Origin: a virus
Taxonomy: Duplodnaviria > Caudoviricetes
Reading direction: 5' to 3' (one strand)
Length of the DNA: 56,375 nt
Virus record (IMG/VR): IMGVR_UViG_3300045922_001059
Coordinates: 1 to 56,375 of that record
The stretch's first letter is position 1. Each line of letters begins with the position of its first letter. Below the pieces are notes generated by a model. That model did no database searches and was not told the origin of the DNA. It saw only the letters and a list, made by a program, of their open reading frames with translations. Below, piece after piece: positions 6,142-55,385 of this stretch. A program made the position numbers and the translations under genes.

Positions 6142-6151
6142 CCCATGTCCC

Positions 6152-8458: not shown

Positions 8459-8465
8459 GCCGCCC

Positions 8466-34880: not shown

Positions 34881-36596
34881 CTAGGCCGCGTCCGTGTCGG
34901 GGGTGACCGCCTGCTCAGCGGGTTCCTCCTGGGGGGCCGCCGCGGTCTCGTCCTGCTGGGGCGGGGCCGTCTGTTGCTGCACCATGGCGCCGTAGGCCCC
35001 GATTGGCCCCGGCGCGCCGGGCTGGCGTACGTCCTGGGTCAGGGGGTCGAAGAAGATCGGGCCGCTGAAGGTCTTGATGATTTCGGGGATGAAGTCGATC
35101 TCCTGGTCGACCCGCTCGAGCACTTCCTTCTCGGTGTTCCGCAGGATGCGCTTGGCCGCGCGCTTCTCGAGGGTGCGGCGGAAGGTCGGCGAGCGGATCG
35201 CGTCCCCCCCGGTCGTGATCATCTGCAGCTCCTCGAGGAAACTCTGCACCGAAAAGTCGTCGGGGTAATCGATGGCCCCGCGCCACTCGCTGCGCAGCCA
35301 CTTATGCCAGAGCCGGTGGGCCGCGCTCTCGGCATTCTCGAGCTCGTCCGCCCGCTCGGCCAGGACCGCGTTGGTCTCGTTAAACTCGAACGCCAGCGCC
35401 ACCCCGCTGGGCGCCGCGCGCGGCTCGAGCCCCAGCCCGCCGCCGAGCTTGGCCAGGCGGTAGATCTCCTCCCGCAACCGCTGGGTCCGGTCCTCCATGA
35501 AGGCGGTCGGCGCCGTCGAGGGGGAGAGGAAGTACGGCGGCCGGTCCCCGCTGTACTCGAGGACGTTGTTGGTCCCGATGATAATCTCTTCCGCGTCCTG
35601 CGGCTGGCGGCCGATCACCAGGATATTGAGGACCTGCTGGTACACCGCCTCGTCGATCATGGAGTCCATGTTGAGGATCCCCACGTTGAGCTTGGCGATG
35701 TCGGCGATGAGGGACTGGCCGAGGAAGGGGTAGCGCGCCGACCGCCGGTTATACACCGGCACAACCGGCACCTCCCCCAGCCCGTGGACCCCCTGGTCGA
35801 CCAGGAGCACAGTATCCCCGCGCACCTCGTGGATGGCCCACTCGGTCCGGGTCCACGTGCGGTAGCGCGCCCGGTGGGGGCGGCGGCCCAGGCGCCGGTG
35901 GCTGGCGGGGTACGCCAGCAGCGGGTCCTCGTCGATCGCGTACCGGGTGTCGCGGTCTTTCACCAGGTAGGGGTCGGCCGCGTCCGGCAGCGGCTCGCGG
36001 AAGCGGATCCACAGCAGCCGCTCGTCCTCGTCGAGCGCCCAGTTTGGCACCTCCGTCGGGAAGTACGTGACGAAGTAGGGCCGCAGCCCGCGCTGCTTGC
36101 GCTCCGCCTCGTGGCGCGGGGGCTGGCGGACCGTCGGCATGTCCACGGCGATGAAGACGTGACCGAAGATGAGCGCGTAGCGGGCGACCTGGACCATGTA
36201 GCGGTCGATCGTGTTCTGTCGCCGGTCGACGTTCTTCTGAAACTCGACCCACTCCCCCTCGATGCCGCCCGTCGGCACAGCGGCCGGCGCCCCCGGCACC
36301 GGGGTGCGGCTGATGTGCTTGGAGAAGATGTAGTGCAGGTAGAGGTCGATGACGGGCGCGCAGAAATTCCGGTACACGATGCGCTTGGCCCGCATCGCGT
36401 GCGACTCCGCCGACTCCCGGGCGTGGCGGTGAATGTACCGCTCCAGGTTCTCCCCCTCGTAGAGGTCGAGATACATGACCCAGGCGCTGAGGAACTTGTC
36501 GTACAGCGGGTGCGTGCGCGTCAGGGCACGGGCGGAGAGGGCACGCGTGCCCTGGGCGGTCGGGAATGTCTGGTCAGGGACGCTATGCAGGGCCAC
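34881..36596 (-). CDS. Portal protein
   Basis: HPLY...LYEG...RES...R...YRNF; FGHVFIAVD; HGLGEVPVV; SGVALAFEF; YPDDF. Confidence 0.85.
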   Translation of the reverse strand: MALHSVPDQTFPTAQGTRALSARALTRTHPLYDKFLSAWVMYLDLYEGENLERYIHRHARESAESHAMRAKRIVYRNFCAPVIDLYLHYIFSKHISRTPVPGAPAAVPTGGIEGEWVEFQKNVDRRQNTIDRYMVQVARYALIFGHVFIAVDMPTVRQPPRHEAERKQRGLRPYFVTYFPTEVPNWALDEDERLLWIRFREPLPDAADPYLVKDRDTRYAIDEDPLLAYPASHRRLGRRPHRARYRTWTRTEWAIHEVRGDTVLLVDQGVHGLGEVPVVPVYNRRSARYPFLGQSLIADIAKLNVGILNMDSMIDEAVYQQVLNILVIGRQPQDAEEIIIGTNNVLEYSGDRPPYFLSPSTAPTAFMEDRTQRLREEIYRLAKLGGGLGLEPRAAPSGVALAFEFNETNAVLAERADELENAESAAHRLWHKWLRSEWRGAIDYPDDFSVQSFLEELQMITTGGDAIRSPTFRRTLEKRAAKRILRNTEKEVLERVDQEIDFIPEIIKTFSGPIFFDPLTQDVRQPGAPGPIGAYGAMVQQQTAPPQQDETAAAPQEEPAEQAVTPDTDAA

Positions 36597-36951: not shown

Positions 36952-38523
36952 TCAAAACACCCCCCGAAGCCGCCGCATCTTGTACCGCCCCGTCCCGACG
37001 GTCTCCCACGAAAAGGTCGTGTAGCGGAGCACGTCCGCCGCGTGGTCGTCCTTCTTCACGATGACATCCTTCATCGGCTGGCCGTCCTTGCCGATCCGGT
37101 GGACGTAGAGCTGGCCCAGCTCCTTCCGCATCCGCTCGCAGCGGGCAAAGAACCGCAACCCGGGCAACCCGTCCGGGCGGCGCATCAGTAACCGCTTAAC
37201 ATGGTTGACCCCCTCGTACAAGGCGTTGTTCGCCGGGGTGGCGAAGATCAGGTGTTCCTCCAGGTCGCGGATCGCCTGCCGCCCCGCCGGGTCCGCGAAC
37301 ACGCAGGTGCGCGACGACCACCCCAACGGGTCGCGCGCCTTGATGTTCTTGGCGTGCTCGGACAGGGGCAGGTCGTGGTCGGCGGAGTACCAGTACTCCT
37401 CGTACTGGTACCAGATCGTCGTGCGCGGGTCGCGCATGAAGTAGCCGGCGTAGAAGTTGGACCCGAAGTCGATCCCCACCGCGCGGGGCCACTGCTCCGC
37501 CCGCGCCCGCGCCAGCAGCGCCTGCGCCTCCTCCGTCCCGACCACGTAGGGGGGCTCGTCCTTGAAAAACTTCCCGTAGACCAGGGACCCGGCGTGCGGG
37601 CGCCGGTTCTCCCACTGCGTCTCGAAGGTCTCCGCGTCCAGGTTGCTGACCTTCTTGATGAAGTCGTCGATCGTGAAGAACCCCCCGGGCGGCAGGTCGT
37701 GCGCCCGCCCGCCGCACAGCGGCTCCTCGATGCCGTCGCGGTTGATCCGGCTGTAGACCGGGCAGTCCCCGTAGACCGGGTCCCCGCGGCACTGGCGCGT
37801 ACAGGGCTGGAGCACCTCCCAGATGCACCACGCCTTCACCACGACCCCCCGCTGCTCGGCCTCGTCCAGGATCTTCTGCATCGTCCCGGTGAAGAATTTG
37901 CGGGTCGAGGTCAGGCAGTCGCCGGCCTTCCACTTGCCGTCCCGCGAGGAGACGCTCATCTGGAGCCCCTCCTGCAGGACCTGGGGGTGCATCAGCTCGA
38001 TCTCGTCGATGCGGACCTTCGTCGGGTGGGGGCTGTTGAGCCCGTGGTAGGAGCCGGTGACGATGCTGATGCTCGAGCCGTTGAGGAACTCCGTGCGCGA
38101 CATCAGCGAGCGGGTGACCAGGCCCGCGATGAGCGGGCTGCCGAAGACCATCTGCGAGACGTACTCGTACCCCTTCTCCGCCTGCTTCTTGATCGCGCCG
38201 GCGCTCACGATCTCGACGCCGGGCTTAAAGAGCGCCTCCAGCACGTTCAGGATCGCGGTCCCCAGCGTCTTGCCGCCAGAGCGGCTCGCGAACCCCAGGA
38301 CGGTGCGGTGGCGCTCGAAGAACTGGTCGGCGATGAAGCTGAACGGGGAGACGTGGTGCGGGCAGATCGCGTGCTTGGGGATGTCGTACCCCAGGTAGAC
38401 GCGGATAAAGAAGTCGAGCTCCTCGTCCGTCCGCAGGCCGCGCTCGAGCAGGACAAAAAAGACCTGCTCCTTGACGCGGTCCAGGAGCGGGGCGTCCGGA
38501 CTACCGACGGTCGCGAGCGCCAC
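36952..38523 (-). CDS. terL: Terminase large subunit
   Basis: Walker A SRSGGKT, Walker B VRIDE, nuclease GIDFG and DDHAADVLRY; adjacent to portal. Confidence 0.9.
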   Translation of the reverse strand: MALATVGSPDAPLLDRVKEQVFFVLLERGLRTDEELDFFIRVYLGYDIPKHAICPHHVSPFSFIADQFFERHRTVLGFASRSGGKTLGTAILNVLEALFKPGVEIVSAGAIKKQAEKGYEYVSQMVFGSPLIAGLVTRSLMSRTEFLNGSSISIVTGSYHGLNSPHPTKVRIDEIELMHPQVLQEGLQMSVSSRDGKWKAGDCLTSTRKFFTGTMQKILDEAEQRGVVVKAWCIWEVLQPCTRQCRGDPVYGDCPVYSRINRDGIEEPLCGGRAHDLPPGGFFTIDDFIKKVSNLDAETFETQWENRRPHAGSLVYGKFFKDEPPYVVGTEEAQALLARARAEQWPRAVGIDFGSNFYAGYFMRDPRTTIWYQYEEYWYSADHDLPLSEHAKNIKARDPLGWSSRTCVFADPAGRQAIRDLEEHLIFATPANNALYEGVNHVKRLLMRRPDGLPGLRFFARCERMRKELGQLYVHRIGKDGQPMKDVIVKKDDHAADVLRYTTFSWETVGTGRYKMRRLRGVF

Positions 38524-38941
38524 CGGCCGGGGGGGCGGGGCACTCGTGGGTGCCAGGGGGGCAGGTGCCGGGCGGCTGCGTCAGGGCCCGCTCGAGCCCG
38601 GGGAACAGCGCGCACAGCGCCCGGGCCGCGTCTTCGGTGAGGACGAAACAGCGCGCGCGGAGCCGCTCCTGGCCGTCCGCAGCCAGGAGGAGGGAGCGCT
38701 CACACTGGACGAACGGCGCGAGCGCCCGCCCGAGGCCCGCGAGGAGGACTTCACGCGGGTCCTCCTGGACATCCAGGGACACCCGCAGCGGGCGCGGCGC
38801 GCACAGGACCTGCTCCTGGCAGCGCAACCCCCGCCACAAAATGGCCCAGACCTCGGCCAGGGCCGCCTGCGCGGCCGCCGCCTGTTGTTGGTAATGCAGG
38901 GCGAGCTCTGCGGGGGGAATGGCCTGGTCGGTGTCACTCAT
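38501..38941 (-). CDS. Hypothetical protein
   Basis: Start reassigned to ATG 38941 (AAGGAG-like RBS, overlaps upstream stop). Confidence 0.5.
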   Translation of the reverse strand: MSDTDQAIPPAELALHYQQQAAAAQAALAEVWAILWRGLRCQEQVLCAPRPLRVSLDVQEDPREVLLAGLGRALAPFVQCERSLLLAADGQERLRARCFVLTEDAARALCALFPGLERALTQPPGTCPPGTHECPAPPAGGARDRR

Positions 38942-40239
38942 CGCGGGGTATTCTTTTTGAGGCGTTCGAGTTCGGCGAACCGGGCGCGGATCTTGGCCAC
39001 GACATGCCCGGGCAGGCCGCGCGTGGCCGCGAACTGCTTCAGTTCGGCCTCGGTCATGGTCGGGATCCGGGCCGCCAGCTCCTGCTGGCGGCGGAGGTTG
39101 CGCGCCATCACGGCGGACGGGGTCAGGCGCGGCGGGGCCGAGCGCACGACCCGCACTGACGGGTACGTCGGGCGGGGGCGCGTCAGGTCCAGGCCCGGGC
39201 GCGGGGGCGCGCCGCCGCGGCGGCGGATGACCCCGCCGCGCACACGCACCATCTCGGTCGCCCCGTAGCGGCCGACCCGCCCTTTCCGCACCTGCCGCCA
39301 CATGGTCTCGATACTCTGTTCGGCCTGGAGCCGGTCCTGGACCTTCTGCTGCCACGACGGCCCGGCGGCGCGCTGGCCGCGGGCAATGATGTCGCCGAGG
39401 ACATCCCGCTCGGCCACCGGCCGCAGCGCGCTGCGCCGCGCCGGGCCCGTTACCGGCAGCCCGAGGCGGCCGAACAGGCCACGCGCCCACTGCTGGACCC
39501 GCGCGTCGATCCGGTCGATCCACCCGGGCCCGGTCCACGTCTGCGCCAGGCGGGCCTGCAGGCTTTGCATGTCCCGGGCGATCCGGGCGTGATCCGCCGC
39601 GGTCGTTGCCGCGATGCGGGCCGACTTGAGGGCCGCCTCCTGGCGGAGGATCTCCTCCGGGATATTCGCGACCCCCGTGACCCGGCCCGCCAGGCGCTCG
39701 ATCTGCCCGGCGGCGGCCGTCCGCAGCCCCTGCGCGACGTTCCCCACGGCCTGCCCGGCCCGCCGGCCGACCAGCCCGCGCCCGAAGCGCACGGCCGAGA
39801 CCAGCCCGCGGACGGTCTGCGCCCGCAGCCACTGGGCCGCCCGATGGCCCGCGCGGGTGCGGAGCGACAGGTAGCCCGCCGGGAGCGCGACCGCGGCCGT
39901 CCCGAGCCCGAGCAGCGCCAGCTGCGCGAGCGCCCGGCGCCGGGCCTCCGCCTCCCGGCGGACGACCTGCGCCTGTGGGCGCACCCCGCCCTTCCCGACG
40001 CCGGCGGTGTAGCCGGCCGCCTGCAAGAGCGCGCTCGCCTCCCGCTGGCGCTGCGCCACTTCGGGGGGCCGCCCGACGCGCACCTTGCCCGTGCTCCGGC
40101 GGTTCGCCAGCCGGGTCAGCCACTCCCGGCCCCAGGTGAAGGGGTTGCGGCGCGCCCAGAACGTCGCCGCCCGCGGCGCCGGCCCCTCGCTGAGCTTCGC
40201 CATCACCGCTTTGCGCTGGTCGTCGCTGGTAAATTTCAT
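38938..40239 (-). CDS. QRKAVMAKL-leader protein; Arg-rich with hydrophobic helix
   Basis: MKFTSDDQRKAVMAKL; LALLGLGTAAVALPAGYL. Confidence 0.75.
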   Translation of the reverse strand: MKFTSDDQRKAVMAKLSEGPAPRAATFWARRNPFTWGREWLTRLANRRSTGKVRVGRPPEVAQRQREASALLQAAGYTAGVGKGGVRPQAQVVRREAEARRRALAQLALLGLGTAAVALPAGYLSLRTRAGHRAAQWLRAQTVRGLVSAVRFGRGLVGRRAGQAVGNVAQGLRTAAAGQIERLAGRVTGVANIPEEILRQEAALKSARIAATTAADHARIARDMQSLQARLAQTWTGPGWIDRIDARVQQWARGLFGRLGLPVTGPARRSALRPVAERDVLGDIIARGQRAAGPSWQQKVQDRLQAEQSIETMWRQVRKGRVGRYGATEMVRVRGGVIRRRGGAPPRPGLDLTRPRPTYPSVRVVRSAPPRLTPSAVMARNLRRQQELAARIPTMTEAELKQFAATRGLPGHVVAKIRARFAELERLKKNTPR

Positions 40240-40808
40240 GCGCGTGCCTTCTGTTGCCCCGCCAGGAGCGCCGCGAGGTCCCGTTCAATCTCCCGCGCGC
40301 TGGCCGGGCGATACCCCAGGCGGTCGTACAGATCAACATCCGCCTGGCCAGCCCGCCAGGCGTCGATAAACCGCCGCGACAGGACCGACGACCACCCGCG
40401 CCCCTCCCGCTTCATGCGTCGCCACGCGGCCACGATCGGCCAGGTTCGCAACCGGTACCGGCGCGCGTCAGGCGGAATGGGCATGTCCGCGCGGTGCGCC
40501 CGCAGCGGGACATGGCGGCCACCCGGCGTATATTTCCGCTCGAACCCGACCACCACCACCGGCCGATCGCCCTGGCGCCGCAGCCACTGCCGGTACCGCC
40601 GCCGGGTGGCCAGGGACCATTCCGGCTCTTTCTGGCTGAAGTCGTCGAGGTCCTTAAAGCGGACCGCGGGGAACTGCCGCTGCAGCCGCCGCATGAGCGT
40701 GGTCTTCCCCGCCCCGGAAGGGCCGGCGATATGCACCAGGACCCTCCCCGGCCGGCGCGACAGCTTCGCCATCACCGCCTTGCGCTGGTCGTCCGACGTA
40801 AAGCGCAT
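40236..40808 (-). CDS. QRKAVMAKL-leader P-loop (kinase-like) protein
   Basis: MRFTSDDQRKAVMAKL; IAGPSGAGKTT; DLDD. Confidence 0.75.
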   Translation of the reverse strand: MRFTSDDQRKAVMAKLSRRPGRVLVHIAGPSGAGKTTLMRRLQRQFPAVRFKDLDDFSQKEPEWSLATRRRYRQWLRRQGDRPVVVVGFERKYTPGGRHVPLRAHRADMPIPPDARRYRLRTWPIVAAWRRMKREGRGWSSVLSRRFIDAWRAGQADVDLYDRLGYRPASAREIERDLAALLAGQQKARA

Positions 40809-40836
40809 CCCCTCCCCCACCGCGACGGCCCGGCCG

Positions 40837-41007
40837 TCAACGCTTCAGCTGCTTGACGCGCTCGATGAAGGCCTTGAGCGCCTCCACCTGGTTAGCCAAC
40901 TCGTCCAACCCCAGCGGGATGGGGGACCGGTCGTTCGTCACCCGGGCCGCGGTTTTGGACAGCGCGATCACCTTGTTCGTCAACGTCTGCCTGTCACGCG
41001 CACGCAT
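40837..41007 (-). CDS. Small helical hypothetical protein
   Basis: 56 aa from ATG 41007 with GAGGA RBS. Confidence 0.45.
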   Translation of the reverse strand: MRARDRQTLTNKVIALSKTAARVTNDRSPIPLGLDELANQVEALKAFIERVKQLKR

Positions 41008-41656
41008 ACGCCTGTTCCTCCAGCGGGTGTTCGGTTCGCAGCACCTCAAGGACGAGATGGCAGGGGCCGGCCCCTTGCCGCGGGTCGGTCTGGGCGATCT
41101 CCCGCACGATCTGCCACCCGCTGCCGGTAAACCACCCGCGGACCTCCGCCGCGGTGAAGTCGTGCAGGTGGAAGGGGTTGCGCCCGGTAGTGGGCACGAT
41201 CGGGACCGAGAAGTAGATCACCCGCCGGGCGCAGGCCTTGAGCTGGGTGACAAACCGCCACGGGCGCTCCAGGTGCTCGGCCGTCGCGAACGACACCGCC
41301 ACGTCGCAGCGGGGGAGCCGCACCGCGTCGAGGTTGCCCTCGAGGTAGACCGTCCGGACCGTCCCGTACCGCCGCTCGGCCTCCTCAAGCACCGCCGGGT
41401 CGTTGTCGATGCCGACGACCATATGGCAGTACCTGCTCAGCAGCGCGCTCCCGTACCCGCACCCACAGGCGGCGTCGAGCACGACGTCGTCCCACCGCAG
41501 CCGCTCACAGGCGAAACGGTACCGCTCCACATGCAGGCGCAGGTCCGGGTCGCCCGGCGACATCCGGAACGGGGAGATCCGCTCCGCCTGCCGACCCCAG
41601 GCACGCAGGAGTCGGCGGGCGCGGTCGGGCAGCGGCCGCGTCATCGCCCGGGTCAT
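40994..41656 (-). CDS. Class I SAM-dependent methyltransferase
   Basis: HVERYRFA, VLDAACGCGYG, GID, EHL, NPFH. Confidence 0.85.
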   Translation of the reverse strand: MTRAMTRPLPDRARRLLRAWGRQAERISPFRMSPGDPDLRLHVERYRFACERLRWDDVVLDAACGCGYGSALLSRYCHMVVGIDNDPAVLEEAERRYGTVRTVYLEGNLDAVRLPRCDVAVSFATAEHLERPWRFVTQLKACARRVIYFSVPIVPTTGRNPFHLHDFTAAEVRGWFTGSGWQIVREIAQTDPRQGAGPCHLVLEVLRTEHPLEEQAYACA

Positions 41657-41868
41657 GTCGACGCCCCGCGCGGGGCAGGCTCAAACGCCCCGGTCCAGTT
41701 CCGCCGCCGCGCCTTCTCGATAAACGTCCGCACGGTCTCCCCGACCAGTTCCGTGGCCGAGATCCGCATCCCGTCCTTGTGAAAATACGGCGGGTCGGCG
41801 TTGACGACCGGCGTGAACCCCCGGGCGATCAGGTAGTCTTGAATGCTCTCGTAATGCGTCGTCGGCAT
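41653..41868 (-). CDS. Hypothetical protein
   Basis: 71 aa, AAGGGGG RBS, stop overlaps next start. Confidence 0.5.
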   Translation of the reverse strand: MPTTHYESIQDYLIARGFTPVVNADPPYFHKDGMRISATELVGETVRTFIEKARRRNWTGAFEPAPRGAST

Positions 41869-41886
41869 CAGTCCCCCTTGACATCG

Positions 41887-42525
41887 CTACTGGCGCGCGG
41901 CCTGCCGGAGGCGCTTGCGCGCCGCCTGCTCCAGCTGGCTGACGCGCCCCGGACTCAGTCGCAATTTCTTTGCCACCTGCCGCACGGTCCACGGCTCCGG
42001 CCGCAGGTGGCCGTTCGCCCAGTACCGGAGCCGCATCACCCGCGCCTGCTGCGCAGGGAGGGCCAGGACCCGTTTGCGGAGGTGGGCGACGGACGCCCGC
42101 AGGTGGGCGGCGTCGATGCCGCCCGTCTGGCCCTCCCGCGCCGCCGTGTCCAGCGACACGACCGTCTGCTTGTGGGCCTTCGTCAGCCGCTTCTCCGGCA
42201 CGCGGACCGTGAACCCCTGCCCGAGCGCCCGCTGGATGTGCGCCCGGATCCAGGGGGTCGCGTAGGTCGAGAACCGCCCGCGCTTCGGGTTGTACTTGTC
42301 CGCCGCGCGGATCAGCCCGACCGTCCCTTCCTGCACGAGGGCGTCGTAGTCCACCCCCGCCTTGCGGAACCGTCGGGCCACCTTGTGCACCAGGCCCTGG
42401 TTCGCCATGACCAGGGCGTTGCGGGCGGCCAGTTTGCCCTCCCCGCGCAGCTTCGCCATGACCGCCTTGCGTTGTGCGTCGCTGCGGAAGCGGCCCCGGC
42501 GCGTGGTCGGAGTGCGGCGGGTCAC
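41887..42525 (-). CDS. Sigma-70-family factor (regions 2 and 4) carrying the QRKAVMAKL leader
   Basis: NQGLVHKVARRF, LVQEGTVGLIRAADKY, RFSTYATPWIR; HTH WTVRQVAKKLRLSPGRVSQLE; likely GTG start 42525 overlapping upstream TGA. Confidence 0.85.
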   Translation of the reverse strand: MTRRTPTTRRGRFRSDAQRKAVMAKLRGEGKLAARNALVMANQGLVHKVARRFRKAGVDYDALVQEGTVGLIRAADKYNPKRGRFSTYATPWIRAHIQRALGQGFTVRVPEKRLTKAHKQTVVSLDTAAREGQTGGIDAAHLRASVAHLRKRVLALPAQQARVMRLRYWANGHLRPEPWTVRQVAKKLRLSPGRVSQLEQAARKRLRQAARQ

Positions 42526-42788
42526 TGCGGCCCCCGTGGGGAGTGCCTCAGGAGGGCCACGGCGTCGGCGACCGCGCCTTTCAGCGCGAAACACTGCCGG
42601 ACGATGTCGTCAAACCGCTCACGTGCCACCCGCATCTCCCGGCTCTCGCCGTTGAGGTGCGCCGGGTCCGCGCACGCCGCGCGGATCTCGACGTACTGCC
42701 GGTCCAGCTCCGCCAGCAGGGCCCCGAGGAGCGCGGGGAGCTGTTCGGAGACCCCCTCCGGGGGCGGTTGCATCTCTACGCACATCAT
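42522..42788 (-). CDS. Hypothetical helical protein
   Basis: Start reassigned to ATG 42788 (GGAGGG RBS). Confidence 0.5.
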   Translation of the reverse strand: MMCVEMQPPPEGVSEQLPALLGALLAELDRQYVEIRAACADPAHLNGESREMRVARERFDDIVRQCFALKGAVADAVALLRHSPRGPQ

Positions 42789-43525
42789 TATTCCCCTCCG
42801 CGCATCTGCCGGTGCATCAGGGAGACCTTGCGAGGCCGCACGGGCGCGCCGGTATGGCGCGCGAGGAGCCAGCGGCGCGCCCGCCGGTTCCACCGCAGGA
42901 CCTCCTGCTCCAGGCGCGCGAGCGGCCGATCGACGGCCTGCAGGACCGCCGGCGCGACCCGGCGCTGGAGCCGGCCGATCTGCTTCCCGACCCGCACCTT
43001 CGCCAGCCGGGCGAGGTCGTCGATCTGCTGCAAGGTCTCCCCCTGGCGGCCAAACAGCCGCCAGAGACTGAACCGCTCCGCCGCGTTCGCGAGCCGGCGG
43101 GCTGCCCCGCGCCTGACCGCCACCGAGAGCTTGGCCAGCGGCGGGACCCCGTGGATCTTCCTGGTGGAGCCGAACAGCTTGGGCCCGACCCATGGGACCG
43201 ACGCCCAAAACGCTTCGCGATCCTGCGGCGGGCGGCTGTAGACCCACGCCCAGATCGACCGCGGCTGCCCGCCGATCTTCGCCGTATACCCGACCAGCCC
43301 GCTCGGGCGCAGGAGCGTCGCGAGCCCGGCCCGCTTGGAGCGCGCCAGGGCTAACACGCCGAGGCTGCCCAGGGCGGCGGCCCCGGCCAGGAGCCGCGCC
43401 CGGTTCCGGCGGGCGCGGGACCCGGGGCCGCGCAGCGGGAGGTACCACCGCCGGCGCGGGTCCCGCGCCCGGGCGAAAAACGCCCGGCGCTGCGCGTCCG
43501 TGGCGAACCGAGTGGACCCGGTCAC
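42788..43525 (-). CDS. Arg-rich protein with divergent leader (RFATDAQRRAFFAR)
   Basis: Leader variant; LLAGAAALGSLGVLALA. Confidence 0.65.
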   Translation of the reverse strand: MTGSTRFATDAQRRAFFARARDPRRRWYLPLRGPGSRARRNRARLLAGAAALGSLGVLALARSKRAGLATLLRPSGLVGYTAKIGGQPRSIWAWVYSRPPQDREAFWASVPWVGPKLFGSTRKIHGVPPLAKLSVAVRRGAARRLANAAERFSLWRLFGRQGETLQQIDDLARLAKVRVGKQIGRLQRRVAPAVLQAVDRPLARLEQEVLRWNRRARRWLLARHTGAPVRPRKVSLMHRQMRGGE

Positions 43526-43782
43526 TCTGCGTCCTCCGCCGTCAGGCGGCCCAGCAGGCGGATGAGGCGATCAATGGTAAAACGCCCCAGTTTGGCCCGG
43601 CGGATGCGTGAGAGGTCACTGGCCCAGAGCCCTGTCTGCCGGGCCACCTCTCGCAGCGACCCGCCGCGGCGGGCGAGGGCCGCGCAGATGCGTGCAGCCA
43701 ACAGGCTCTTCCACTGCTCGACCTCGGCATCTGGCACCCGCAGATCGCGAAAGACGTTCCCGCTCCCTCGGATCAGCCGCAT
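43522..43782 (-). CDS. XRE/HTH_37 (HigA2-like) DNA-binding protein
   Basis: GSGNVFRDL...DLSRI...RFTIDRLIRLL. Confidence 0.8.
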   Translation of the reverse strand: MRLIRGSGNVFRDLRVPDAEVEQWKSLLAARICAALARRGGSLREVARQTGLWASDLSRIRRAKLGRFTIDRLIRLLGRLTAEDAE

Positions 43783-43783
43783 G

Positions 43784-44602
43784 TTACCCCCCGGACTGCC
43801 ACACCAGATCGAGGCCGGTAATAGGCGTCTGCAGCGTGATCTGTTTGAACCGAATACGGTTGGCCGTCGTCGGCTCGATCCCCGCCCTGCGGAGCAGGTC
43901 GTCGATCTCCTCGTTGGAGGCGGTCATGTAACTCTTGCCGGTCCGTAAAGTCTCCTGGATGGCCCGGTTCACCGCCTCCTTCCACTTCAAGGCCTGCGCC
44001 TCCCGGCGCAGCCGGCGGTGTTCCCGCACCAGTTGCTCCAGGCGGGCCTTGTACGCCTCGCGCCGCGCGAGGTGCGCCTCGTACCCCGGCGTCCCCCCGC
44101 TGCCGCGGGTGCGGGTGCTCTCGTACTTCGGCAGCCCGAGCAGCCGCTCCTGCATTCCCCGCGCCTTCTCGGCCAGGCGCACCGTCAGGCCTGCCTGGGC
44201 CTGGCCGAGCCGCTTGGCGGCCAGGTGTTCTATCCGGGCTACTCGCTTGTCCATCTCGCTTGCCAGGGCCCCCTCGGCCCACGAAAACGGGTAGTCAATA
44301 GCGCCGGCGACGATGTCCTCCACCGGGACCTGGCGGGCCTTCTCGAGCGCCCAGTCCGCGGTCCCCCGCCCCAGCGCCTCGGCCTTCTCGACCGCCTGCC
44401 GCGCCTTCTCGACCGCCTGGCCGCCATAGCTCGCGGCCGTCGCCAGCCCGCCGGCCGCGACCGCCAGGGCCTTCTTCGCCAGCGGCGTCCCGCGCATGCG
44501 GTAGGCCAGGACGCCGGCCGTGCCCGCGATCGCCGCGCCCAGGGCGGCCCGCTTCAGTTTCGCCATCACCGCCTTTCGCTGTTCTTCAGACTGCCAACGC
44601 AT
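43784..44602 (-). CDS. QRKAVMAKL-leader protein with Ala/Gly hydrophobic helices and coiled coil
   Basis: MRWQSEEQRKAVMAKL. Confidence 0.75.
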   Translation of the reverse strand: MRWQSEEQRKAVMAKLKRAALGAAIAGTAGVLAYRMRGTPLAKKALAVAAGGLATAASYGGQAVEKARQAVEKAEALGRGTADWALEKARQVPVEDIVAGAIDYPFSWAEGALASEMDKRVARIEHLAAKRLGQAQAGLTVRLAEKARGMQERLLGLPKYESTRTRGSGGTPGYEAHLARREAYKARLEQLVREHRRLRREAQALKWKEAVNRAIQETLRTGKSYMTASNEEIDDLLRRAGIEPTTANRIRFKQITLQTPITGLDLVWQSGG

Positions 44603-44605
44603 TTC

Positions 44606-45499
44606 TCACCCCCTGTGTTCCTGTTCCCGCGCCCGGCGCCGGGCGCGGAGGTGCAGCAGCAGGGCGGCCGTGGGCACCGCGGCCAGCTGCAACGGGACCT
44701 TGACCCGCGTGATACGCCAGTCCAGGCGCGGGTAGATGTACCGCCACCGGTACCGCTCCCGTAACTTGTGCGCGAGCTTCGCCACGGCGGCTGCCCGGGC
44801 CGGGCCGACCAGGAACTGCCGCCGGTACGGCTTGATGACCTTGCCGCGGCCCACGATCCGCGCGGCCGCCTGCAGAATCCGCGCCTCCTTGCGCGCCGCC
44901 AGCGTGCGCGTCATCCAGGGCTGGAGTTTTTCCGTCAGCCCGATCCCGATCCCCATGAGACCGCCCCCAATCGCCAGGCGGCGGGCCTGCCGGATGTCTG
45001 GATCGTCCTTCCGTTTTTTGTTCAGCAATTTGCGGGCGGCCAGAAACCCCGTGGTGGCGAGCACCGAGAGCGGCAGAGTGTGGCCGGCAAAGAAGCGCGC
45101 GTGGGTCTTCCAGGTCTGCGGCTCGCCGAAGAGCGGGCGCGTCGCGCCCCCGACGGTATGCAGAATCGCCCGCTCGGTAAAAAACGTGCCCGCCCCCAAC
45201 CCGGCAATGCCCCCGAGCGCCTTCCAGTTCATCTTTTTGCGTTTCTCACGGACCCGCGGCGAGAGCAGCCAGGGGACAGAATAGGTCGTGAGCGGCACGG
45301 CATAGAGCCAGGCTCGCGTCGGCGGGACGTGCGAGACGCTCGGGTGCATCACCGTCGCCAGCGACCCCGCGACCGGGAGCCCACCGACTGTAGCCCGCGC
45401 CGCGGGGCTGAGCTGGCGCCAGCGCCGCCAGAGCGCGCGTCGCCCCGCCTGTAACTTCGCCATCACCGCCTTACGCTGCCGCTCCGACGTAAAGCGCAT
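44606..45499 (-). CDS. QRKAVMAKL-leader multi-pass membrane-like protein (paralog of 45499..46227)
   Basis: ATG 45499 MRFTSERQRKAVMAKL; several hydrophobic segments. Confidence 0.75.
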   Translation of the reverse strand: MRFTSERQRKAVMAKLQAGRRALWRRWRQLSPAARATVGGLPVAGSLATVMHPSVSHVPPTRAWLYAVPLTTYSVPWLLSPRVREKRKKMNWKALGGIAGLGAGTFFTERAILHTVGGATRPLFGEPQTWKTHARFFAGHTLPLSVLATTGFLAARKLLNKKRKDDPDIRQARRLAIGGGLMGIGIGLTEKLQPWMTRTLAARKEARILQAAARIVGRGKVIKPYRRQFLVGPARAAAVAKLAHKLRERYRWRYIYPRLDWRITRVKVPLQLAAVPTAALLLHLRARRRAREQEHRG

Positions 45500-46227
45500 T
45501 ACCGACCTCCCTTCCGGCGGGCGCGATAGCGGCGGTAGGTGAGGACTGCGGCGGCGGCCGGGATTGCGCCGATCTGCGCGGCCTTGATGGCCCCCTTCAG
45601 CCACGGCCGCGCGGGCAGGAAGTGCTCGGCCGTGAGCAGCCCCAGATTCGTCCCGAACCCCACGAGCGCCAGGGTCCGCGCGCGCCGGGCAGCCTCGCCC
45701 TTGTCACGTTTCATCAAGTGGTACCCGGCCCCGATGCCGGAGGCCGCCAGCACCCCCAGCGGCACCCCGTGCGTCAACAGCCAGGCGATCCGGCGCTTGT
45801 GGAGCCGGCCCCACGCGCCCAGGTGCCGCTCCGGGACGAAGGTCGGCACGGAGTGTAACAGCGCCCGCTCCCCGAAGAACGTCCCTACCCCCGCCGCGGC
45901 GAGCCCGGCGAGCGTTTTCCCTTCCCGCTTGATCGTGCGCGCCAGGGACTCCCCCCGCCGCCGCGCAAGCGCGTAGGCCGACGCCGGGGCCAGCGCGTAG
46001 GCGCCCATGTGCGGACCGTACTGCCGCAGGAGCATGGACCGGGGCGCGTGAATCACGGCCGGCCGCGTCGCCGCCACCAGCGCGCCGCCCACCGTCGCTG
46101 CCTTCACCCAGCCAGGCGCCTCACGGACCCGCCGCTGGGCCGCCCGGACGGAACGCCGGAGCGACTGCCGCCCCGCCTGCAGCCTCGCCATGACGGCTTT
46201 GCGTTGTCGCTCTGACCGAAAGACCAC
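45499..46227 (-). CDS. QRKAVMARL-leader multi-pass membrane-like protein
   Basis: MVFRSERQRKAVMARL; GVGTFFGERALLHSV matches GAGTFFTERAILHTV of the neighbour. Confidence 0.75.
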   Translation of the reverse strand: MVFRSERQRKAVMARLQAGRQSLRRSVRAAQRRVREAPGWVKAATVGGALVAATRPAVIHAPRSMLLRQYGPHMGAYALAPASAYALARRRGESLARTIKREGKTLAGLAAAGVGTFFGERALLHSVPTFVPERHLGAWGRLHKRRIAWLLTHGVPLGVLAASGIGAGYHLMKRDKGEAARRARTLALVGFGTNLGLLTAEHFLPARPWLKGAIKAAQIGAIPAAAAVLTYRRYRARRKGGR

Positions 46228-46833
46228 CTACCTGACACGCATCAGGGCTCGGGGCCCCCGTCGGACAATCCACTGGCTCACCGCCCGCCGGCCAGCGCGA
46301 TAGACCTTAGACACACCGCGAGAGACGGACCGCGGAAGGACAAAAGGCCGTGGCCGCGCGAGAAGGGCGACCGCGCGATGGGCCGGCATCGTCGCGATCA
46401 GTATGCCTCCCGCCAGCGCTCCAGCCTTTGGGGCGGAGAGCTCCCGTGACCCCTGCCGTTTGCGGAGGCGGGCGACTCCTTCCCCTAACAGGGCCCCCGC
46501 CCCGAGCCCTGCCCCCCAGACCGTCGCGAGCCGGCCCATCACGCGGGCAATGAGCGCGTTGTTGCGCGTGCGGACCCACTTTCTCGGTTGCCTCACTTCC
46601 TGCATTTCGATCACCGGGGGGACCCACGGCCGATTCTTCAGCGTCCGGATCACCCAGGGGACAAACTGCCGCGGCAGAGACCGATACCGGATCCGCTCAA
46701 GTGCCGCACGGGTCCTGAGCACCCGCCCGGCGCCGAACCCGACCGCCCCGAGCCCTCCCACCAGCGCCGCGACCTTCAGCTGGTGCCGCAGGCGCTGCCG
46801 CGCAGATTGCTGCCGTCTCGGTGTAGACATCAT
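46228..46833 (-). CDS. Arg-rich protein with Gly-rich hydrophobic segments
   Basis: VAALVGGLGAVGFGAG; WGAGLGAGALLG. Confidence 0.6.
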   Translation of the reverse strand: MMSTPRRQQSARQRLRHQLKVAALVGGLGAVGFGAGRVLRTRAALERIRYRSLPRQFVPWVIRTLKNRPWVPPVIEMQEVRQPRKWVRTRNNALIARVMGRLATVWGAGLGAGALLGEGVARLRKRQGSRELSAPKAGALAGGILIATMPAHRAVALLARPRPFVLPRSVSRGVSKVYRAGRRAVSQWIVRRGPRALMRVR

Positions 46834-46847
46834 CGCTTGCCCCCTCT

Positions 46848-47288
46848 CTACCTGGTGATCACTGTCACTGGACGGACTTCACGTTGTTGCCACGCCAGGT
46901 TTCGTCGTTGGCCGGACTGCCGCGCCAGGGGCATCCCGACGTACCCGATCCCTAACCCCGCCAGGACCCCCCGGATCGTGCGCAGCCGCTGGAGCGCGCG
47001 CCGCCGCGCCCGCGAGAGGCGTAATGCCTTACGGACCGCCCGCGTGTACGTCCCCCGCCGCCGGAGCACGGCCTCGGTCGGCACCAGTCGCCGCAGTTCC
47101 CGGCTGACGGCCGACCATTCCAGGGCCCGCTGGTGCGCCCGCAGGGCGCGGCCGCGCGCGCCGCGGACCGCCAGGGTCATCCCGGCCAGGGCCGCGCCGA
47201 CCCCGAGCGCCCGGCGGAGCGTGGACCATAGCGCCGGCCGGCGGGCCGTCGAGCGGCGGTAGCGCTGGAGTACGCCGGGGGAGTTCAT
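46848..47288 (-). CDS. Arg-rich protein with two hydrophobic segments
   Basis: ATG 47288 overlapping upstream stop. Confidence 0.55.
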   Translation of the reverse strand: MNSPGVLQRYRRSTARRPALWSTLRRALGVGAALAGMTLAVRGARGRALRAHQRALEWSAVSRELRRLVPTEAVLRRRGTYTRAVRKALRLSRARRRALQRLRTIRGVLAGLGIGYVGMPLARQSGQRRNLAWQQREVRPVTVITR

Positions 47289-47716
47289 CGGAGTGACGAG
47301 CCGAGGCCTTTGGCAAGGCTCTTCAAGGCAGGCCTGGCCGCGCGCCACAACACCTGCGCCCGGCGTTTCGGGAAGACGAAGAGCGCGCGCAGGCCACGGC
47401 CCAGTCGCTGCGCCCCGTACTGCTTCCCGCGGGGCGCCAGCATCTGCCGCACGATGTCCTCGTAGTCCTCGATCGTGCCGAAGAACCGCCGCACCCGCGC
47501 CCGGGTCGCGGCACTCCAGTCCGGGAGCTTCTGGAGCGCCTTATATGTGCCGTACAGCACCGCCACGTCACGCACGGCCTGCTGCACCTCCGGGTCGCGG
47601 ACCTGCCCGGCCAGATAGCGCCCCGCCGCCGAGCGCCGGAGCTTGGCGAAGATCGCCCGCCACTGCGCCCGCGTGCGCCGCACCCTGGTCCACCGCCGTG
47701 TTCGTGTCCTATTCAT
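47285..47716 (-). CDS. Arg-rich protein with possible divergent leader (TRAQWRAIFAKL)
   Basis: ATG 47716 overlapping upstream stop. Confidence 0.6.
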   Translation of the reverse strand: MNRTRTRRWTRVRRTRAQWRAIFAKLRRSAAGRYLAGQVRDPEVQQAVRDVAVLYGTYKALQKLPDWSAATRARVRRFFGTIEDYEDIVRQMLAPRGKQYGAQRLGRGLRALFVFPKRRAQVLWRAARPALKSLAKGLGSSLR

Positions 47717-48282
47717 GTCCTGAACCCAAAAAATCGCCACACCCGTTTCCGGATGCCGCCGGGGTGTGACAGGAACCCCGCACGGATCATCCCAGACCCA
47801 ATCCGTTCGACTGCCAGTCCGCCCAGCCCGACCACGACACCAATCTTCCCCGCCGTGAGCCCGCGCGACCCTAAGCGTACCCGGTCACCAAACCGCGCCA
47901 CCATCCGCGCCCGCGCGATGCGTTTGGGGTGCGCCGCGACCCAGGCTGCCGCCCGGCGCGCCGCTCTCCGTCCCCAGTCCGCGACGGCGCCGCCAACCCG
48001 TTCGGCGGCGTACCCGACCGCAGGCACCCGGCGGCCGATGCCCGAGAGCTCGTAGAGTCGCCGGGCGCCCTGGCCGAAATGGTACGGGCTCCGGTACAGG
48101 CCCGCATTCGCAAGGTACCGGGCCCCCTCATGTAGCCCGAGGGCCCCAAGCCCGAGACCGGCAACCCCAACGCCCGCCCGCTTCACCCACTTCCCTGTCG
48201 CGTGCGTCCGGAACCCGTACCGGATCATGCGGTTCGCCGCCCCCCGAGACCGTGACTGCCGCCGTGCCCGCGTCTTGTTCAT
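47713..48282 (-). CDS. Arg-rich protein with Gly-zipper segments
   Basis: GGAGG RBS before ATG 48282; GVGVAGLGLGALG. Confidence 0.6.
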   Translation of the reverse strand: MNKTRARRQSRSRGAANRMIRYGFRTHATGKWVKRAGVGVAGLGLGALGLHEGARYLANAGLYRSPYHFGQGARRLYELSGIGRRVPAVGYAAERVGGAVADWGRRAARRAAAWVAAHPKRIARARMVARFGDRVRLGSRGLTAGKIGVVVGLGGLAVERIGSGMIRAGFLSHPGGIRKRVWRFFGFRT

Positions 48283-48451
48283 CGCCTCCCCCCGCACAGG
48301 GGCTCATGACTCCTGCTCCGGGCACTTCACCCGCACCGGCTCCCGCCAGCGCCGCGCGATCTGGTGCTGGCGGACAACCTCCTCCAGGACCTGATCCTCG
48401 CTACACTCCTCCGGAAACCACTTCAGCCACGGGACCGCGTCATAGCGCACT

Positions 48452-48649
48452 TCACCGTGTGACATCTGTTCCTCCTAGACGCCGAAATGTCATCGCGTAC
48501 TCGCCGACCTTCTCGCGAATACACGACTCGCACATCCATCTCCATGTGTACGACCCCCCGCCAGGGCGGGTCCCCTCCCGCAACACCTGCAGCACAGCAG
48601 GCCGCCCGCACACCCTCCACCGCCCTTTCACCCACCGCTCGCACGTCAT
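48452..48649 (-). CDS. Small zinc-finger-like protein
   Basis: C...CGRPA...CESC. Confidence 0.5.
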   Translation of the reverse strand: MTCERWVKGRWRVCGRPAVLQVLREGTRPGGGSYTWRWMCESCIREKVGEYAMTFRRLGGTDVTR

Positions 48650-48930
48650 GTCCGCCGCACCCGGCGCACCGCCCGCTCGACCATCCGCTTGAGCCGCTTG
48701 ACGCGCGCCACCAGCGTCCGGGACCGGCGTCGGCGGCGCAGTTCTCGCGCGCGTAACGCCGGGCTCACGGACGCCAAAAGACTCCCCGGGCCGCCACGGG
48801 ACTTGCGCAGGTTCTCGAAAAACTGCACCTGCCGCTCCCGCCGCAGGATGGCCGCCCGACTCCGCGTGCGCCCCAACACCCGGCCGGACGACGCGCGTAA
48901 CACATACTCACGCCCTTCCCGTTCGATCAT
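48646..48930 (-). CDS. Small basic phage protein
   Basis: MIEREG.EYVL...GRVLG...RRERQVQFF; ATGA overlaps on both sides. Confidence 0.6.
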   Translation of the reverse strand: MIEREGREYVLRASSGRVLGRTRSRAAILRRERQVQFFENLRKSRGGPGSLLASVSPALRARELRRRRRSRTLVARVKRLKRMVERAVRRVRRT

Positions 48931-49808
48931 CGCCGTCTCCGCTCCGGCCGGCGCCAGGCGCGGGCCGCGTCACGCCACTGCTTGAGCGTGACTCCCCCGA
49001 GGCCGCCGAGATACGTGGCATAGGCCGCACCCAGCAGGCCGGCCGCCGGCACAAGCTTTACCGCCGGCATGCCGGCGTGCCGCAGGATCCGCAGGCCGCG
49101 GCCCGACGCCAACGCTTCCTCCGCCAGCACAGGCGCCGCCAGCACAGTCGGGAGCGCCGCGCCCGCGACCATCAGGCCCCGCCGGAGACCCGTCCGCTCC
49201 TGCCGCCGCCCGAGGCGCTGCAGCCCCTCGGACGCCAGGAGGCCGGCCGGGATAACACCCGCCATCGTCTCATAGGGGACGGCGATGAGCCGGCGGCGCA
49301 GCGCCTCAAATCGCCCAGGGCCGGCCGCGGTCGCGTGGCCGAGTTCGTGCGCGAAGAGCGCGGGGCTCGCCCGCTCGGGCACCACCACCAACGACCGCCG
49401 CATCTGCGGCCAGACGCGCCGGCCCCGCGGCCAGACACGGCGCAGCGCGCGGCCGACCAGCGCCCCCAGGGTATGGGCATTGGTCAGCGGGACCCGCGCG
49501 ACCCCCCCGCCCCGCGCCAGGAGCAGGTTCGCGGTCTCGTACTGCGTCCGCCGGACCCCGCGGTAGAGGCGCCCGGCGGTGCGGTGCATGTGGGCCAGGG
49601 TCTCGGGCCGGATCCGGGGGCCGAGCGTGACCCGCCCCAGGACCGTCGCCAGGCCCGCGAGGCCCGCCAGGCCGAGCGCGCGCTGGGCCCGCTCCGCCTT
49701 CGACAGCCCCGGGCGGAACGGCGAGAGTCGTCCCCAGAGCCCTGCCGCGCGGCGCCGGAGCGACGCCATCACCGCCTTGCGCTGCCGCTCGGACCGAAAC
49801 TGCGCCAT
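48927..49808 (-). CDS. QRKAVMASL-leader membrane zinc-metallopeptidase-like protein
   Basis: MAQFRSERQRKAVMASL; AHELGHA plus distal EEALAS; hydrophobic helices. Confidence 0.7.
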   Translation of the reverse strand: MAQFRSERQRKAVMASLRRRAAGLWGRLSPFRPGLSKAERAQRALGLAGLAGLATVLGRVTLGPRIRPETLAHMHRTAGRLYRGVRRTQYETANLLLARGGGVARVPLTNAHTLGALVGRALRRVWPRGRRVWPQMRRSLVVVPERASPALFAHELGHATAAGPGRFEALRRRLIAVPYETMAGVIPAGLLASEGLQRLGRRQERTGLRRGLMVAGAALPTVLAAPVLAEEALASGRGLRILRHAGMPAVKLVPAAGLLGAAYATYLGGLGGVTLKQWRDAARAWRRPERRRR

Positions 49809-50434
49809 CAGGCCTCCACGGTGAGGTCATAAAAGAAGGCCGGCCCGTCCTCCGTGTGCCACTTCGCCATCCCCTCGCAGGCCCAGTTGCGGGTGTTCGT
49901 CCGGTAGTCCGGCCGCTCCCCCTCGGCGTAGGGCCGGGTGATGAAACTCGGCTCGTACCACAGGATCCGGTTGTTCGGCTGGAGGGCGAAGTTGCCGTTA
50001 TCAAGCCGGATCAGCACCCCGGTCTTATGGCCCCCTTCCCCCGCGTCCTCCGCGTAGGCGCTCTTCGCCCAGTCGAATGTCATCAGGTACTCGCCGGCAT
50101 ACCAGCGCCGGTCCTTCAAGATCGTCCGGCAGCGCAGGCCACGCAGGTACGCGAACTCGTGTACCGCGATGTCGTAACTGAAACAGTCCCAGAGCTCGAG
50201 CACGTCGAGCGGCTGCGCCGGGGCGTCCGGCTTCCAGCATAGGGCGTGGAGCGGGATGCGGTCGACCTGCGCGCCGCGGTCCGTCATGACGTGGAACGTC
50301 AAGGCCCGCGACTGCAGACTGGTAACCCCAAACACTGCGACCGGGGTCACCTCCCCGTGGTGCGCCTCCCCGTTGTACAGGAACTCGCTCCGCAGGAAGC
50401 AGTACCAGTGCGGGACCGAAGCAAGGAGAAACAT
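49808..50434 (-). CDS. Phage hypothetical protein (globular, aromatic-rich)
   Basis: 208 aa of normal composition; LDNGNFALQPNNR; coupled to next gene. Confidence 0.7.
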   Translation of the reverse strand: MFLLASVPHWYCFLRSEFLYNGEAHHGEVTPVAVFGVTSLQSRALTFHVMTDRGAQVDRIPLHALCWKPDAPAQPLDVLELWDCFSYDIAVHEFAYLRGLRCRTILKDRRWYAGEYLMTFDWAKSAYAEDAGEGGHKTGVLIRLDNGNFALQPNNRILWYEPSFITRPYAEGERPDYRTNTRNWACEGMAKWHTEDGPAFFYDLTVEA

Positions 50435-53536: not shown

Positions 53537-53596
53537 ACACGGGCAAGGGGGTGCCGGAGGAATCGTACAAGATAACCCTTCGGCATCGGCCCGTGT
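53537..53596 (-). ncRNA. Y-RNA-like RNA, copy 2
   Basis: ACACGGGCCGA...CTTGCCCGTGT terminal stem with bulged C; upper stem TGCCG/CGGCA; loop beginning TTATC; downstream of Ro60. Confidence 0.75.
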
Positions 53597-53644
53597 GCCA
53601 TTACATTTACCACATCGCGGCGCCCGATCAACTGTGGGGGGAGA

Positions 53645-53712
53645 GACGACACGGACAAGGGGGTGCCGGAGGAATCGTACAAGATAACCCTTCGGCATCG
53701 GCCCGTGTCGTC
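53645..53712 (-). ncRNA. Y-RNA-like RNA, copy 1
   Basis: GACGACACGGGCCGA...CTTGTCCGTGTCGTC; same structure; begins a few nt after the Ro60 stop codon. Confidence 0.8.
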
Positions 53713-55365: not shown

Positions 55366-55385
55366 AGAACCCCCTGAATGGGCAA

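Follow-up and report, generated by a model that had tools for sequence, protein, structure and literature searches.

The viral contig IMGVR_UViG_3300045922_001059, hereafter the window, is linear and 56,375 bp long, constitutes the entire assembly and has approximately 64-74% G+C. Its minus strand holds nearly all long open reading frames (ORFs). Between 38.9 and 49.8 kb, 13 ORFs are tightly packed, and several of their junctions measure -4, -1, 0 or +3. Nine of these minus-strand ORFs carry a short peptide of the form [FW]x[ST]xxQ[RW][KR]A[VIF][MF]A, which we call the tag, and four untagged ORFs are interleaved with them. The array comprises the following genes, with tag scores in bits against a profile built from 64 motif instances:

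38938..40239, minus strand: tagged ORF of 433 aa, starting MKFTSDDQRKAVMAKL; tag codons 40192-40233, 27.1 bits
40236..40808, minus strand: tagged ORF of 190 aa, MRFTSDDQRKAVMAKL and then the Walker A sequence GPSGAGKTT; tag codons 40761-40802, 28.2 bits
41887..42594, minus strand: tagged sigma-70-family factor, 212 aa from the likely start GTG 42525; tag codons 42448-42489, 33.2 bits
42788..43525, minus strand: ORF of 245 aa with a divergent tag, MTGSTRFATDAQRRAFFARA; tag codons 43466-43507, 20.8 bits
43784..44602, minus strand: tagged ORF of 272 aa, MRWQSEEQRKAVMAKL; tag codons 44555-44596, 24.8 bits
44606..45499, minus strand: tagged ORF of 297 aa, MRFTSERQRKAVMAKL, paralogue of 45499..46227; tag codons 45452-45493, 23.8 bits
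45499..46227, minus strand: tagged ORF of 242 aa, (M)VFRSERQRKAVMARL; tag codons 46180-46221, 23.2 bits
47285..47716, minus strand: ORF of 143 aa with a divergent tag, MNRTRTRRWTRVRRTRAQWRAIFAKL; tag codons 47639-47680, 23.2 bits
48927..49808, minus strand: tagged ORF of 293 aa, MAQFRSERQRKAVMASL, with HELGH; tag codons 49758-49799, 24.7 bits
46228-46833, 46848-47348, 47713-48297 and 48646-48930, minus strand: four untagged Arg-rich ORFs without the motif; isoelectric point (pI) 12, net charge +24 to +38

A six-frame search with the regular expression Q[RW][KR]A[VIF][MF]A returned seven exact copies of QRKAVMA plus QRRAFFA (43492) and QWRAIFA (47665). All nine copies are encoded by the minus strand, in three frames and within 40218-49784, and the same search found none elsewhere in the contig. 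In 200 dinucleotide-preserving shuffles, the expression occurred 0.01 times on average and once at most. Against the motif profile, the nine copies scored 20.8-33.2 bits versus 5.9 bits for the next best six-frame match in the window. The bodies behind the tags have little in common. Among the 78 pairs that the 13 array proteins form, the only related one was 45499/46227, with 33% identity over 192 aa (E 3e-12). An alignment at the DNA level revealed that the likeness is confined to the coding motif and that the regions upstream of it are unrelated. Within the motif, serine is encoded by AGC, TCG, TCT, TCA and TCC, and synonymous variation is also seen in the codons for Q, R, K, A and V. These results bear out three claims of the original prediction, which was made from the letters of the window: that there are seven near-identical and two divergent leaders, that their bodies are unrelated save for one paralogue pair, and that selection acts on the peptide and not on a DNA site. 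We conclude that the shared leader is neither a DNA repeat nor a trace of shared ancestry among the bodies.

Two explanations were discarded. A DNA-level repeat, promoter or recombination cassette was rejected because the coding motif alone aligns, with synonymous variation. A promoter and terminator scan of the window gave counts at the level of shuffled sequence (1 vs 0.8 and 11 vs 8, respectively). Spurious ORFs in GC-rich DNA were rejected as well, since the G+C content at third codon positions of the tagged ORFs is 0.86-0.94 (0.94-0.96 for terL, the portal gene and the major capsid protein gene), each tag is in the reading frame of its ORF, and the sigma factor domains are solid. Most starts are preceded by purine-rich, Shine-Dalgarno-like runs, as read from the DNA alignment. 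The distance from start to motif is 2-6 residues in seven ORFs and approximately 13 in the 47716 ORF, and in the sigma factor the motif begins approximately 12 residues in, if GTG 42525 is the start.

Over all instances the consensus is hydrophobic-x-[ST]-[DE]-x-Q-R-[KR]-A-[VMI]-[MF]-A-[KR]-[LM], approximately 14 residues in which the Q and two Ala are invariant. The pattern consists of a hydrophobic staple, an [ST]xx[QE] cap and an amphipathic basic helix with the invariant Q, A and A. The [ST]xx[QE] element looks like a capping box, and the pattern as a whole would be of the short docking helix type. In a single-sequence AF2 model of the 190-aa P-loop protein, which is of low confidence (pLDDT 48.6) and which we used, with little weight, for the helix call only, the tag forms a helix at residues 6-17, before the first strand. 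A Tat or Sec signal was considered because of the RK and the hydrophobic residues in the 44602 ORF; it was rejected since what immediately follows the tag is a P-loop fold in one ORF and a sigma factor in another.

As expected for proteins living among packed DNA, all nine tagged and four untagged array proteins are polycationic, with a pI of 10.3-12.0 and a net charge of +17 to +53. The extreme is the 433-aa protein (pI 12.0, +53), for which a weak C-terminal SAP-like match (E 0.018) was the only hit. The sigma factor (pI 12.0) matched Sigma70_r2 (E 1.1e-17), Sigma70_r4 (E 5.1e-10) and phrog_351 (E 4e-40). Its label in the original prediction is therefore solid. The P-loop and HExxH labels given there did not reach the same level: they correspond to visible motifs plus Pfam matches that are all sub-threshold for the 190-aa protein (AAA/P-loop) and below the cut-off for the 293-aa HELGH protein (Zn_peptidase_2, E 0.0068). 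The 245-aa protein (pI 12) has a single hydrophobic stretch at residues 44-61, the 272-aa protein (pI 10.3) has no family match in Pfam, PHROGs or NCBIfam, and the 143-aa protein has a near-identical 143-aa counterpart, P0002, on another contig. Three of the four untagged proteins (all but 48646-48930) were scanned and gave no family matches. Directly upstream of the first tagged gene, 49808-50434 on the minus strand encodes a 208-aa acidic protein matching phrog_3704, 'ferredoxin' (E 2e-57); its gene shares one base with the start of the tagged HExxH gene.

Below the array, the order terL-portal-scaffold-major capsid protein (MCP) runs downwards from 38.5 kb, followed by very large tail or fibre proteins. 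None of the four head-module genes carries the motif:

36952-38523, minus strand: terL (phrog_2); pI 8.3
34881-36596, minus strand: portal (phrog_145, E 4.6e-66); pI 5.5-5.9
33899-34807, minus strand: 302-aa gene in scaffold position, named by its position; pI 5.5-5.9
32625-33857, minus strand: SU10-type MCP (PF17236 SU10_MCP, E 1.5e-70); pI 5.5-5.9

The family scans thus place the array where the original prediction had put it, directly upstream of the terL, portal, scaffold and capsid genes and on the same strand, with an ORF of approximately 145 aa intervening before terL. The portal, the scaffold-position protein and the MCP, with a pI of 5.5-5.9, contrast with the basic array.

To find the motif elsewhere, a 30-column leader profile was searched against 1.84 billion representative proteins at a cut-off of E<=1e-3. 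The search returned 32 proteins, 6 of which were the window's own or near-identical to them. Among the 26 others, 13 are small or medium-sized proteins with the motif at residues 3-6, in the form M-x-F-[KR]-S-D-x-QRKAVMAKL, and one has it at residue 20. The remaining 12 proteins, of 148-1182 aa, hold 2-5 copies in the form L-A-N-[AR]-G-x-M-[ST]-D-x-QR[KR]AMFAK[LM]-G-G-G; in P0003, P0008/P0010 and P0019 (P and L numbers are our handles for proteins and loci), a Mu-like_Pro domain stands at the N-terminus of such a multi-copy protein. We then looked for known families over the motif itself. Pfam gave no match there at E<=0.1 for the window and DUF2213-type proteins or at E<=0.01 for the other carriers scanned, no NCBIfam model scanned matched, and a comparison of the leader profile with PDB chains gave no match (best E 7.1). 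The sole PHROG over the motif was phrog_16759, 'unknown function', at residues 1-34 of a small carrier protein of class C (E 6e-4). Membership in a known family was rejected on the basis of Pfam, PHROGs with a function, NCBIfam and PDB. DUF3008, a look-alike of the motif, showed no model match over the motif residues. A tblastn search with a 32-aa leader against 50,697 phage records gave no match, and an ESM Atlas look-up of residues 1-24 gave no usable match. Core motif strings such as QRKAVMA were absent from the full-text literature searched, which covers articles without their supplements, and the literature on DUF2213, judged from listings, contained nothing relevant. The sources searched describe neither the motif nor its wide distribution nor its occurrence in head modules.

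The genomic context of the carriers was obtained by exact DNA-pattern scans. The metagenome scan gave 62 loci, 33 of which hold the motif at >=18 bits; matches below 18 bits and exact duplicate peptides are excluded from the copy counts, and core-only matches to QRKAVMAKKRR (L186, L187, L195) were set aside as chance. By its own terms, the original prediction would have been refuted by a motif that is mostly single-copy or internal and has no link to morphogenesis genes, and the outcome was favourable to it. Among 70 unique motif copies, 62 are N-terminal, 6 ambiguous and 2 internal, counts that describe the 'VMA' variant selected by the scan pattern and not the 'MFA' variant, for which internal positions are commoner. 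At 16 of the 33 loci there are 2-8 copies, though many contigs are only 1-2 kb long. Wherever the context sufficed, the carriers lay in or beside particle genes; the exceptions were L159, L190 and many contigs that were too short.

Mu-type head modules with the motif occur in the IMG/VR locus L047 and in the metagenome-assembled genomes (MAGs) L116 (Kiritimatiellia), L117 (Verrucomicrobia) and G007:C118 (Pirellulaceae). In L116 and L117, Portal_Mu is followed by a protein of 1149-1214 aa with 4-5 motifs, Mu-like_Pro with 0-1 motif, a protein of 812-815 aa with the motif near residue 20, an acidic 181-aa protein and the major head protein (phrog_1005, E 2e-33). The tagged protein of approximately 810 aa between the protease and capsid genes of L116 (4011-6449, minus strand) has a staphylococcal-nuclease (SNase) domain by Pfam. 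This domain was seen in the L116 copy, and the 710-aa protein of L047 gave no SNase match. In L047, the order is Portal_Mu, Mu-like_Pro with two motifs and the 710-aa protein, which starts MPFRSDAQRKAVMAKLRGG; the giant protein is missing. The Akkermansia phage closest to the L047 protease is without the motif. In G007:C118, the motif protein comes directly after the portal. The corresponding post-portal position of phage Mu is that of gp30, annotated 'minor head protein and DNA pilot'. The Mu-type MAG loci may be prophages or domesticated particles.

A variant, MP-x-VSEAQRKAMFAAA-x-GKSTLGIP, heads proteins of 470-700 aa that consist of NUDIX or Acb1, DUF2213 and an acidic tail (three of five such fusions were tested with Pfam); small proteins of 56-100 aa begin with the same leader variant. 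In cultured phages, DUF2213 relatives bear the annotation head-maturation protease. In L105 (2964-4706, plus strand), an Acb1 anti-CBASS phosphodiesterase (PF23474, E 1.4e-35) lies between the tag and DUF2213, a fusion that hints at a counter-defence enzyme inside the capsid. The cultured Shewanella phage vB_Sb_QDWS has a 615-aa gene, two genes after the portal, that begins with a degenerate tag. Three proteins of approximately 150 aa that match 'tail completion or Neck1' (phrog_5; L079, E 1.5e-10; L090, E 1e-4; L008, E 3e-3) hold the motif as an internal insertion. The Neck1 motif proteins of L101 and L090 are encoded between head-completion and tail genes, and the Neck1-like motif protein of L008 is at the position of Mu gene G. 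A relative of the window phage is L114, with a terL 50% identical to that of the window: terL, portal, scaffold, MCP and one further gene are followed by the start MMRSESQRRAMFAQM at the contig end. In L040, the same head order and connector-position genes precede MRFTSAAQRKAVMASL at the contig end; judged from the terL N-terminus and the gene order, this locus is probably related to the window phage. In both L114 and L040, the start of the tagged gene lies downstream of the capsid gene.

Arrays comparable to that of the window recur. L190 holds eight scored tagged genes, or approximately ten with degenerate copies, within 7.9 kb and consists of the array only. L136 has six tagged genes, and L138, L151, L184, L180 and L191 have five each. 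As in the window, the bodies are unrelated, with one related pair among the 55 pairs tested. In one subfamily, seen in L136 (1791-4562, plus strand) and P0032, the tag is followed after approximately ten residues by a second element, [ST]-x-V-x-P-[QE]-I-[IV]. L151 and L138 are the same element, which is A+T-rich, as is L146; the arrays of all three sit between small hydrophobic proteins (pilin-like or coat-like) and large secreted, adhesin-like lectin/FG-GAP proteins. L159 looks archaeal, judged from DUF655 and MCM_C, and L070 is titled Euryarchaeota. The carriers thus span bacteria and probably archaea.

Among known systems, the capsid targeting sequence (CTS) of phage T4 is the closest in function, a short N-terminal peptide shared by diverse proteins, as on the nine ORFs described here. 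The T4 sequence has no known likeness to the tag. Unlike in T4, no T4-type protease or cleavage motif was found in the window, and the tag motif also occurs in internal tandem, in Neck1 and in elements without recognisable HK97-type head genes. According to PMC3012670, an engineered CTS-nuclease fusion is packaged by T4; the tagged SNase protein in the Mu-type head module of L116 would be a natural counterpart. The closest genomic setting is that of the polyvalent or MuF-linked proteins, diverse enzymes encoded with portal, MuF and other head genes, for which packaging and injection are predicted (Iyer et al., 2017; PMC5512222). The multi-motif proteins described above take the MuF position after Portal_Mu. 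Polyvalent proteins, however, are single multidomain chains on folded anchors such as MuF, whereas here separate genes carry a 14-residue helix. MuF gave no match in P0011-P0016, P0020 or the 1214-aa protein of L116, and these multi-motif proteins have no other Pfam match; the phrases 'short motif' and 'peptide motif' are absent from the main text of PMC5512222. On the features compared (a protease site, looked for and not found in the window; MuF; internal and Neck1 copies; non-tailed-looking carriers), the tag appears to belong to neither the T4-CTS nor the polyvalent class. Leaders of the eCIS/PVC type are N-terminal, stand on effectors encoded beside a contractile injection system and serve to load them into the tube. 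The window encodes a phage with terminase, portal and capsid. Encapsulin cargo peptides and the coat-binding helix-turn-helix (HTH) of P22-type scaffolds are short helical or extended peptides that dock cargo or scaffold on the inner face of an HK97-fold shell; they are C-terminal and co-evolve with the shell. The tag, by contrast, stands at the N-terminus or inside the protein and hardly differs between carriers whose capsids are unrelated, and is therefore not of the C-terminal pocket type.

Because the particle-assembly gene set is the commonest denominator of the carriers, we tentatively favour the reading that the tag is a docking or address peptide of particle-associated proteins, with a generic partner being probable. 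In the window, nine unrelated and strongly basic proteins would be recruited by the tag to a single shared partner within the particle during its assembly. The cargo, among it the sigma factor, the P-loop and HExxH proteins and some membrane-like proteins, would end up inside the virion with the DNA. Candidates for the partner are the packaged DNA, the same motif or an acidic scaffold core. We infer that the tagged proteins would be docked, packaged and ejected. The tight coupling of the array genes, which abut the terminase genes, was counted in favour of this reading. A generic partner is preferred to a lineage-specific capsid pocket because the motif hardly changes across unrelated capsid and portal families. 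The original prediction had proposed a portable tag that directs cargo into the head or tail lumen or docks it on one common partner. Its particle-gene link and portability have held up, which supports it in part; a capsid-specific receptor looks unlikely, and 'docks it on one common partner' is the safest wording of that proposal.

Several observations weigh against an address of this kind, above all against one that is specific for a capsid. The MCPs of the window and of L116 have no detectable similarity (E 0.7), and the portal families differ as well (phrog_145 in the window, Portal_Mu in the Mu-type carriers), although the motif is almost identical. In L151 and L146, the motif is accompanied by a Zot-type ATPase (Pfam 31.6 bits, above the cut-off; phrog_197, E 3e-10) and in L146 also by a protein-primed DNA polymerase (pPolB); no tailed-phage hallmarks were found among 15 tested proteins of L151/L146-type elements. 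A near-invariant motif across unrelated capsids and portals and Zot/pPolB elements makes a capsid-specific pocket of the T4 or encapsulin type, with a co-evolving receptor, unlikely. Many copies are internal tandem repeats, so a free N-terminus is not required. A profile scan found no motif in the portal, scaffold-position protein or MCP of the window, and family scans recognised no prohead protease or cleavage motif there; nor do the window leaders show a conserved residue pattern after the helix. Phage Mu itself is without the motif. L159 has a single tag amid ParB, methylase and DUF655 genes, that is, among replication and partition functions. Not every carrier is basic: most are, strongly so, but acidic proteins make up the L190 array and the DUF2213 fusions. 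Finally, the sigma factor, methyltransferase and HTH genes in the array are typical early or middle regulatory content, and the contig shows no replication module. The contig may therefore be incomplete, in which case the position upstream of terL could be the end of an early region.

A bolder form of the docking reading, in which the tag is a cross-lineage address for virion-internal cargo and loads a sigma factor, an NTPase, metallopeptidase-like and membrane-active proteins for co-injection, appears doubtful to us. Such an address would be shared by tailed phages with unrelated heads and by the non-tailed-looking Zot/pPolB elements. If it exists, injected proteins, including the anti-defence proteins Acb1, NUDIX and SNase, would be predictable from sequence alone. 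The proteins a phage brings into the cell could then be listed in the same way and would, unusually, include a sigma factor. We know of no case in which a ready-made sigma factor is injected to redirect the host RNA polymerase. Being short, portable and compatible with very diverse bodies, such a tag would likewise be a candidate handle with which to load capsids with foreign proteins. Whatever its mechanism, the motif defines an unannotated family of head proteases, Neck1 proteins, giant scaffold-position proteins and arrays in uncultured viruses.

Four other explanations have to be weighed against docking in the particle, and several of them are mutually compatible. The first in rank, though in our view still rather unlikely, is that the tag is a putative nucleic-acid-binding arm, a short basic-region-like helix, its invariant Q and two Ala lying on one face with R and K at their flanks, that fastens genome-associated proteins to DNA; virion residence, where present, would then follow from DNA binding and not from a capsid address. 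DNA is a partner common to unrelated tailed phages and Zot/pPolB elements, and a DNA-binding arm agrees with the basic character of most carriers. Where Mu has gp30, multi-copy proteins have 4-5 helices joined by Gly-rich linkers, and the Neck1 insertion lies in the head-to-tail connector, on the path of the ejected DNA, its exact place in the neck being uncertain. The tag may also resemble the basic region of bZIP proteins, N-x-x-A-A-x-x-[CS]-R. A portal motor, however, cannot pump proteins that are attached to DNA, so that tailed phages would still need a separate loading route. The acidic carriers do not fit such an arm either, and no DNA-binding family matched over the motif. Conservation across very different viruses would equally fit a conserved cellular partner. 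The tag might accordingly dock early or takeover proteins on a host hub (chaperone, protease, RNA polymerase or ribosome), the array being an early region that abuts the terminase genes. The sigma factor, the interleaved HTH gene and the methyltransferase agree with this, as would a possible likeness to the DnaK-binding sigma-32 peptide QRKLFFNLRKTKQ. We consider a host hub improbable: bacteria and, as L159 and L070 indicate, probably archaea share few such hubs, the Mu-type, DUF2213 and Neck1 carriers place the motif in morphogenesis proteins and not in early genes, and a host hub hardly accounts for the tandem copies inside scaffold-position proteins.

The adjacency of Mu-like_Pro genes raises the question of whether the motif is a module joint or processing site at which giant multi-motif polyproteins are cut by the neighbouring head protease, the window encoding the modules separately. 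Internal copies are preceded by hydrophobic-x-N-A-V-R-V ... L-A-N-[AR]-G, an element that is missing from N-terminal copies and resembles the A-L-T-N-x-P at the end of the Mu-like protease domain, and [KR]-G-G runs follow many copies. No protease was recognised in the window, however, its tags lack both the upstream element and the GG run, and the distance from the Asn element to the helix is not constant. A processing site would explain the position of the helix but not its conservation. We regard it as slightly less probable still than a host hub, and it is compatible with docking. The lowest probability falls to self-association, in which the helices bind each other, perhaps antiparallel (acidic N-terminal half against basic C-terminal half), and the multi-motif proteins are hubs of an internal body. 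Self-association needs no conserved receptor, which fits the spread over virus types; the arrays, the flexibly linked tandem copies and the invariance of small residues agree with it as well. Against it, the window has no multi-motif hub and the helices are net positive. A co-fold of two 30-aa leader copies, run without controls, scored 0.02 against a mark of 0.42 and counts neither way.

Outside the array and the head module, three further regions of the window were noted. A 603-aa ORF (53719-55530, minus strand) lies beside a pair of tandem repeats of approximately 60 nt (53537-53712), read by eye as a putative Ro60 with a Y-RNA-like element; Rfam at the gathering threshold gave no matches anywhere in the window. 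Within the structural module, 26360-29344 (minus strand) encodes a single 994-aa protein that combines GT4, SAM methyltransferase and GT2 domains. Three very large distal proteins are encoded at 252-8482 (minus strand). The first has CBM9, beta-helix/NosD and fibronectin/purple-acid-phosphatase-N domains, and the third has a sub-threshold match (E 4e-4) to a depolymerase-like beta-sandwich only. These three proteins are probably fibres or depolymerases.

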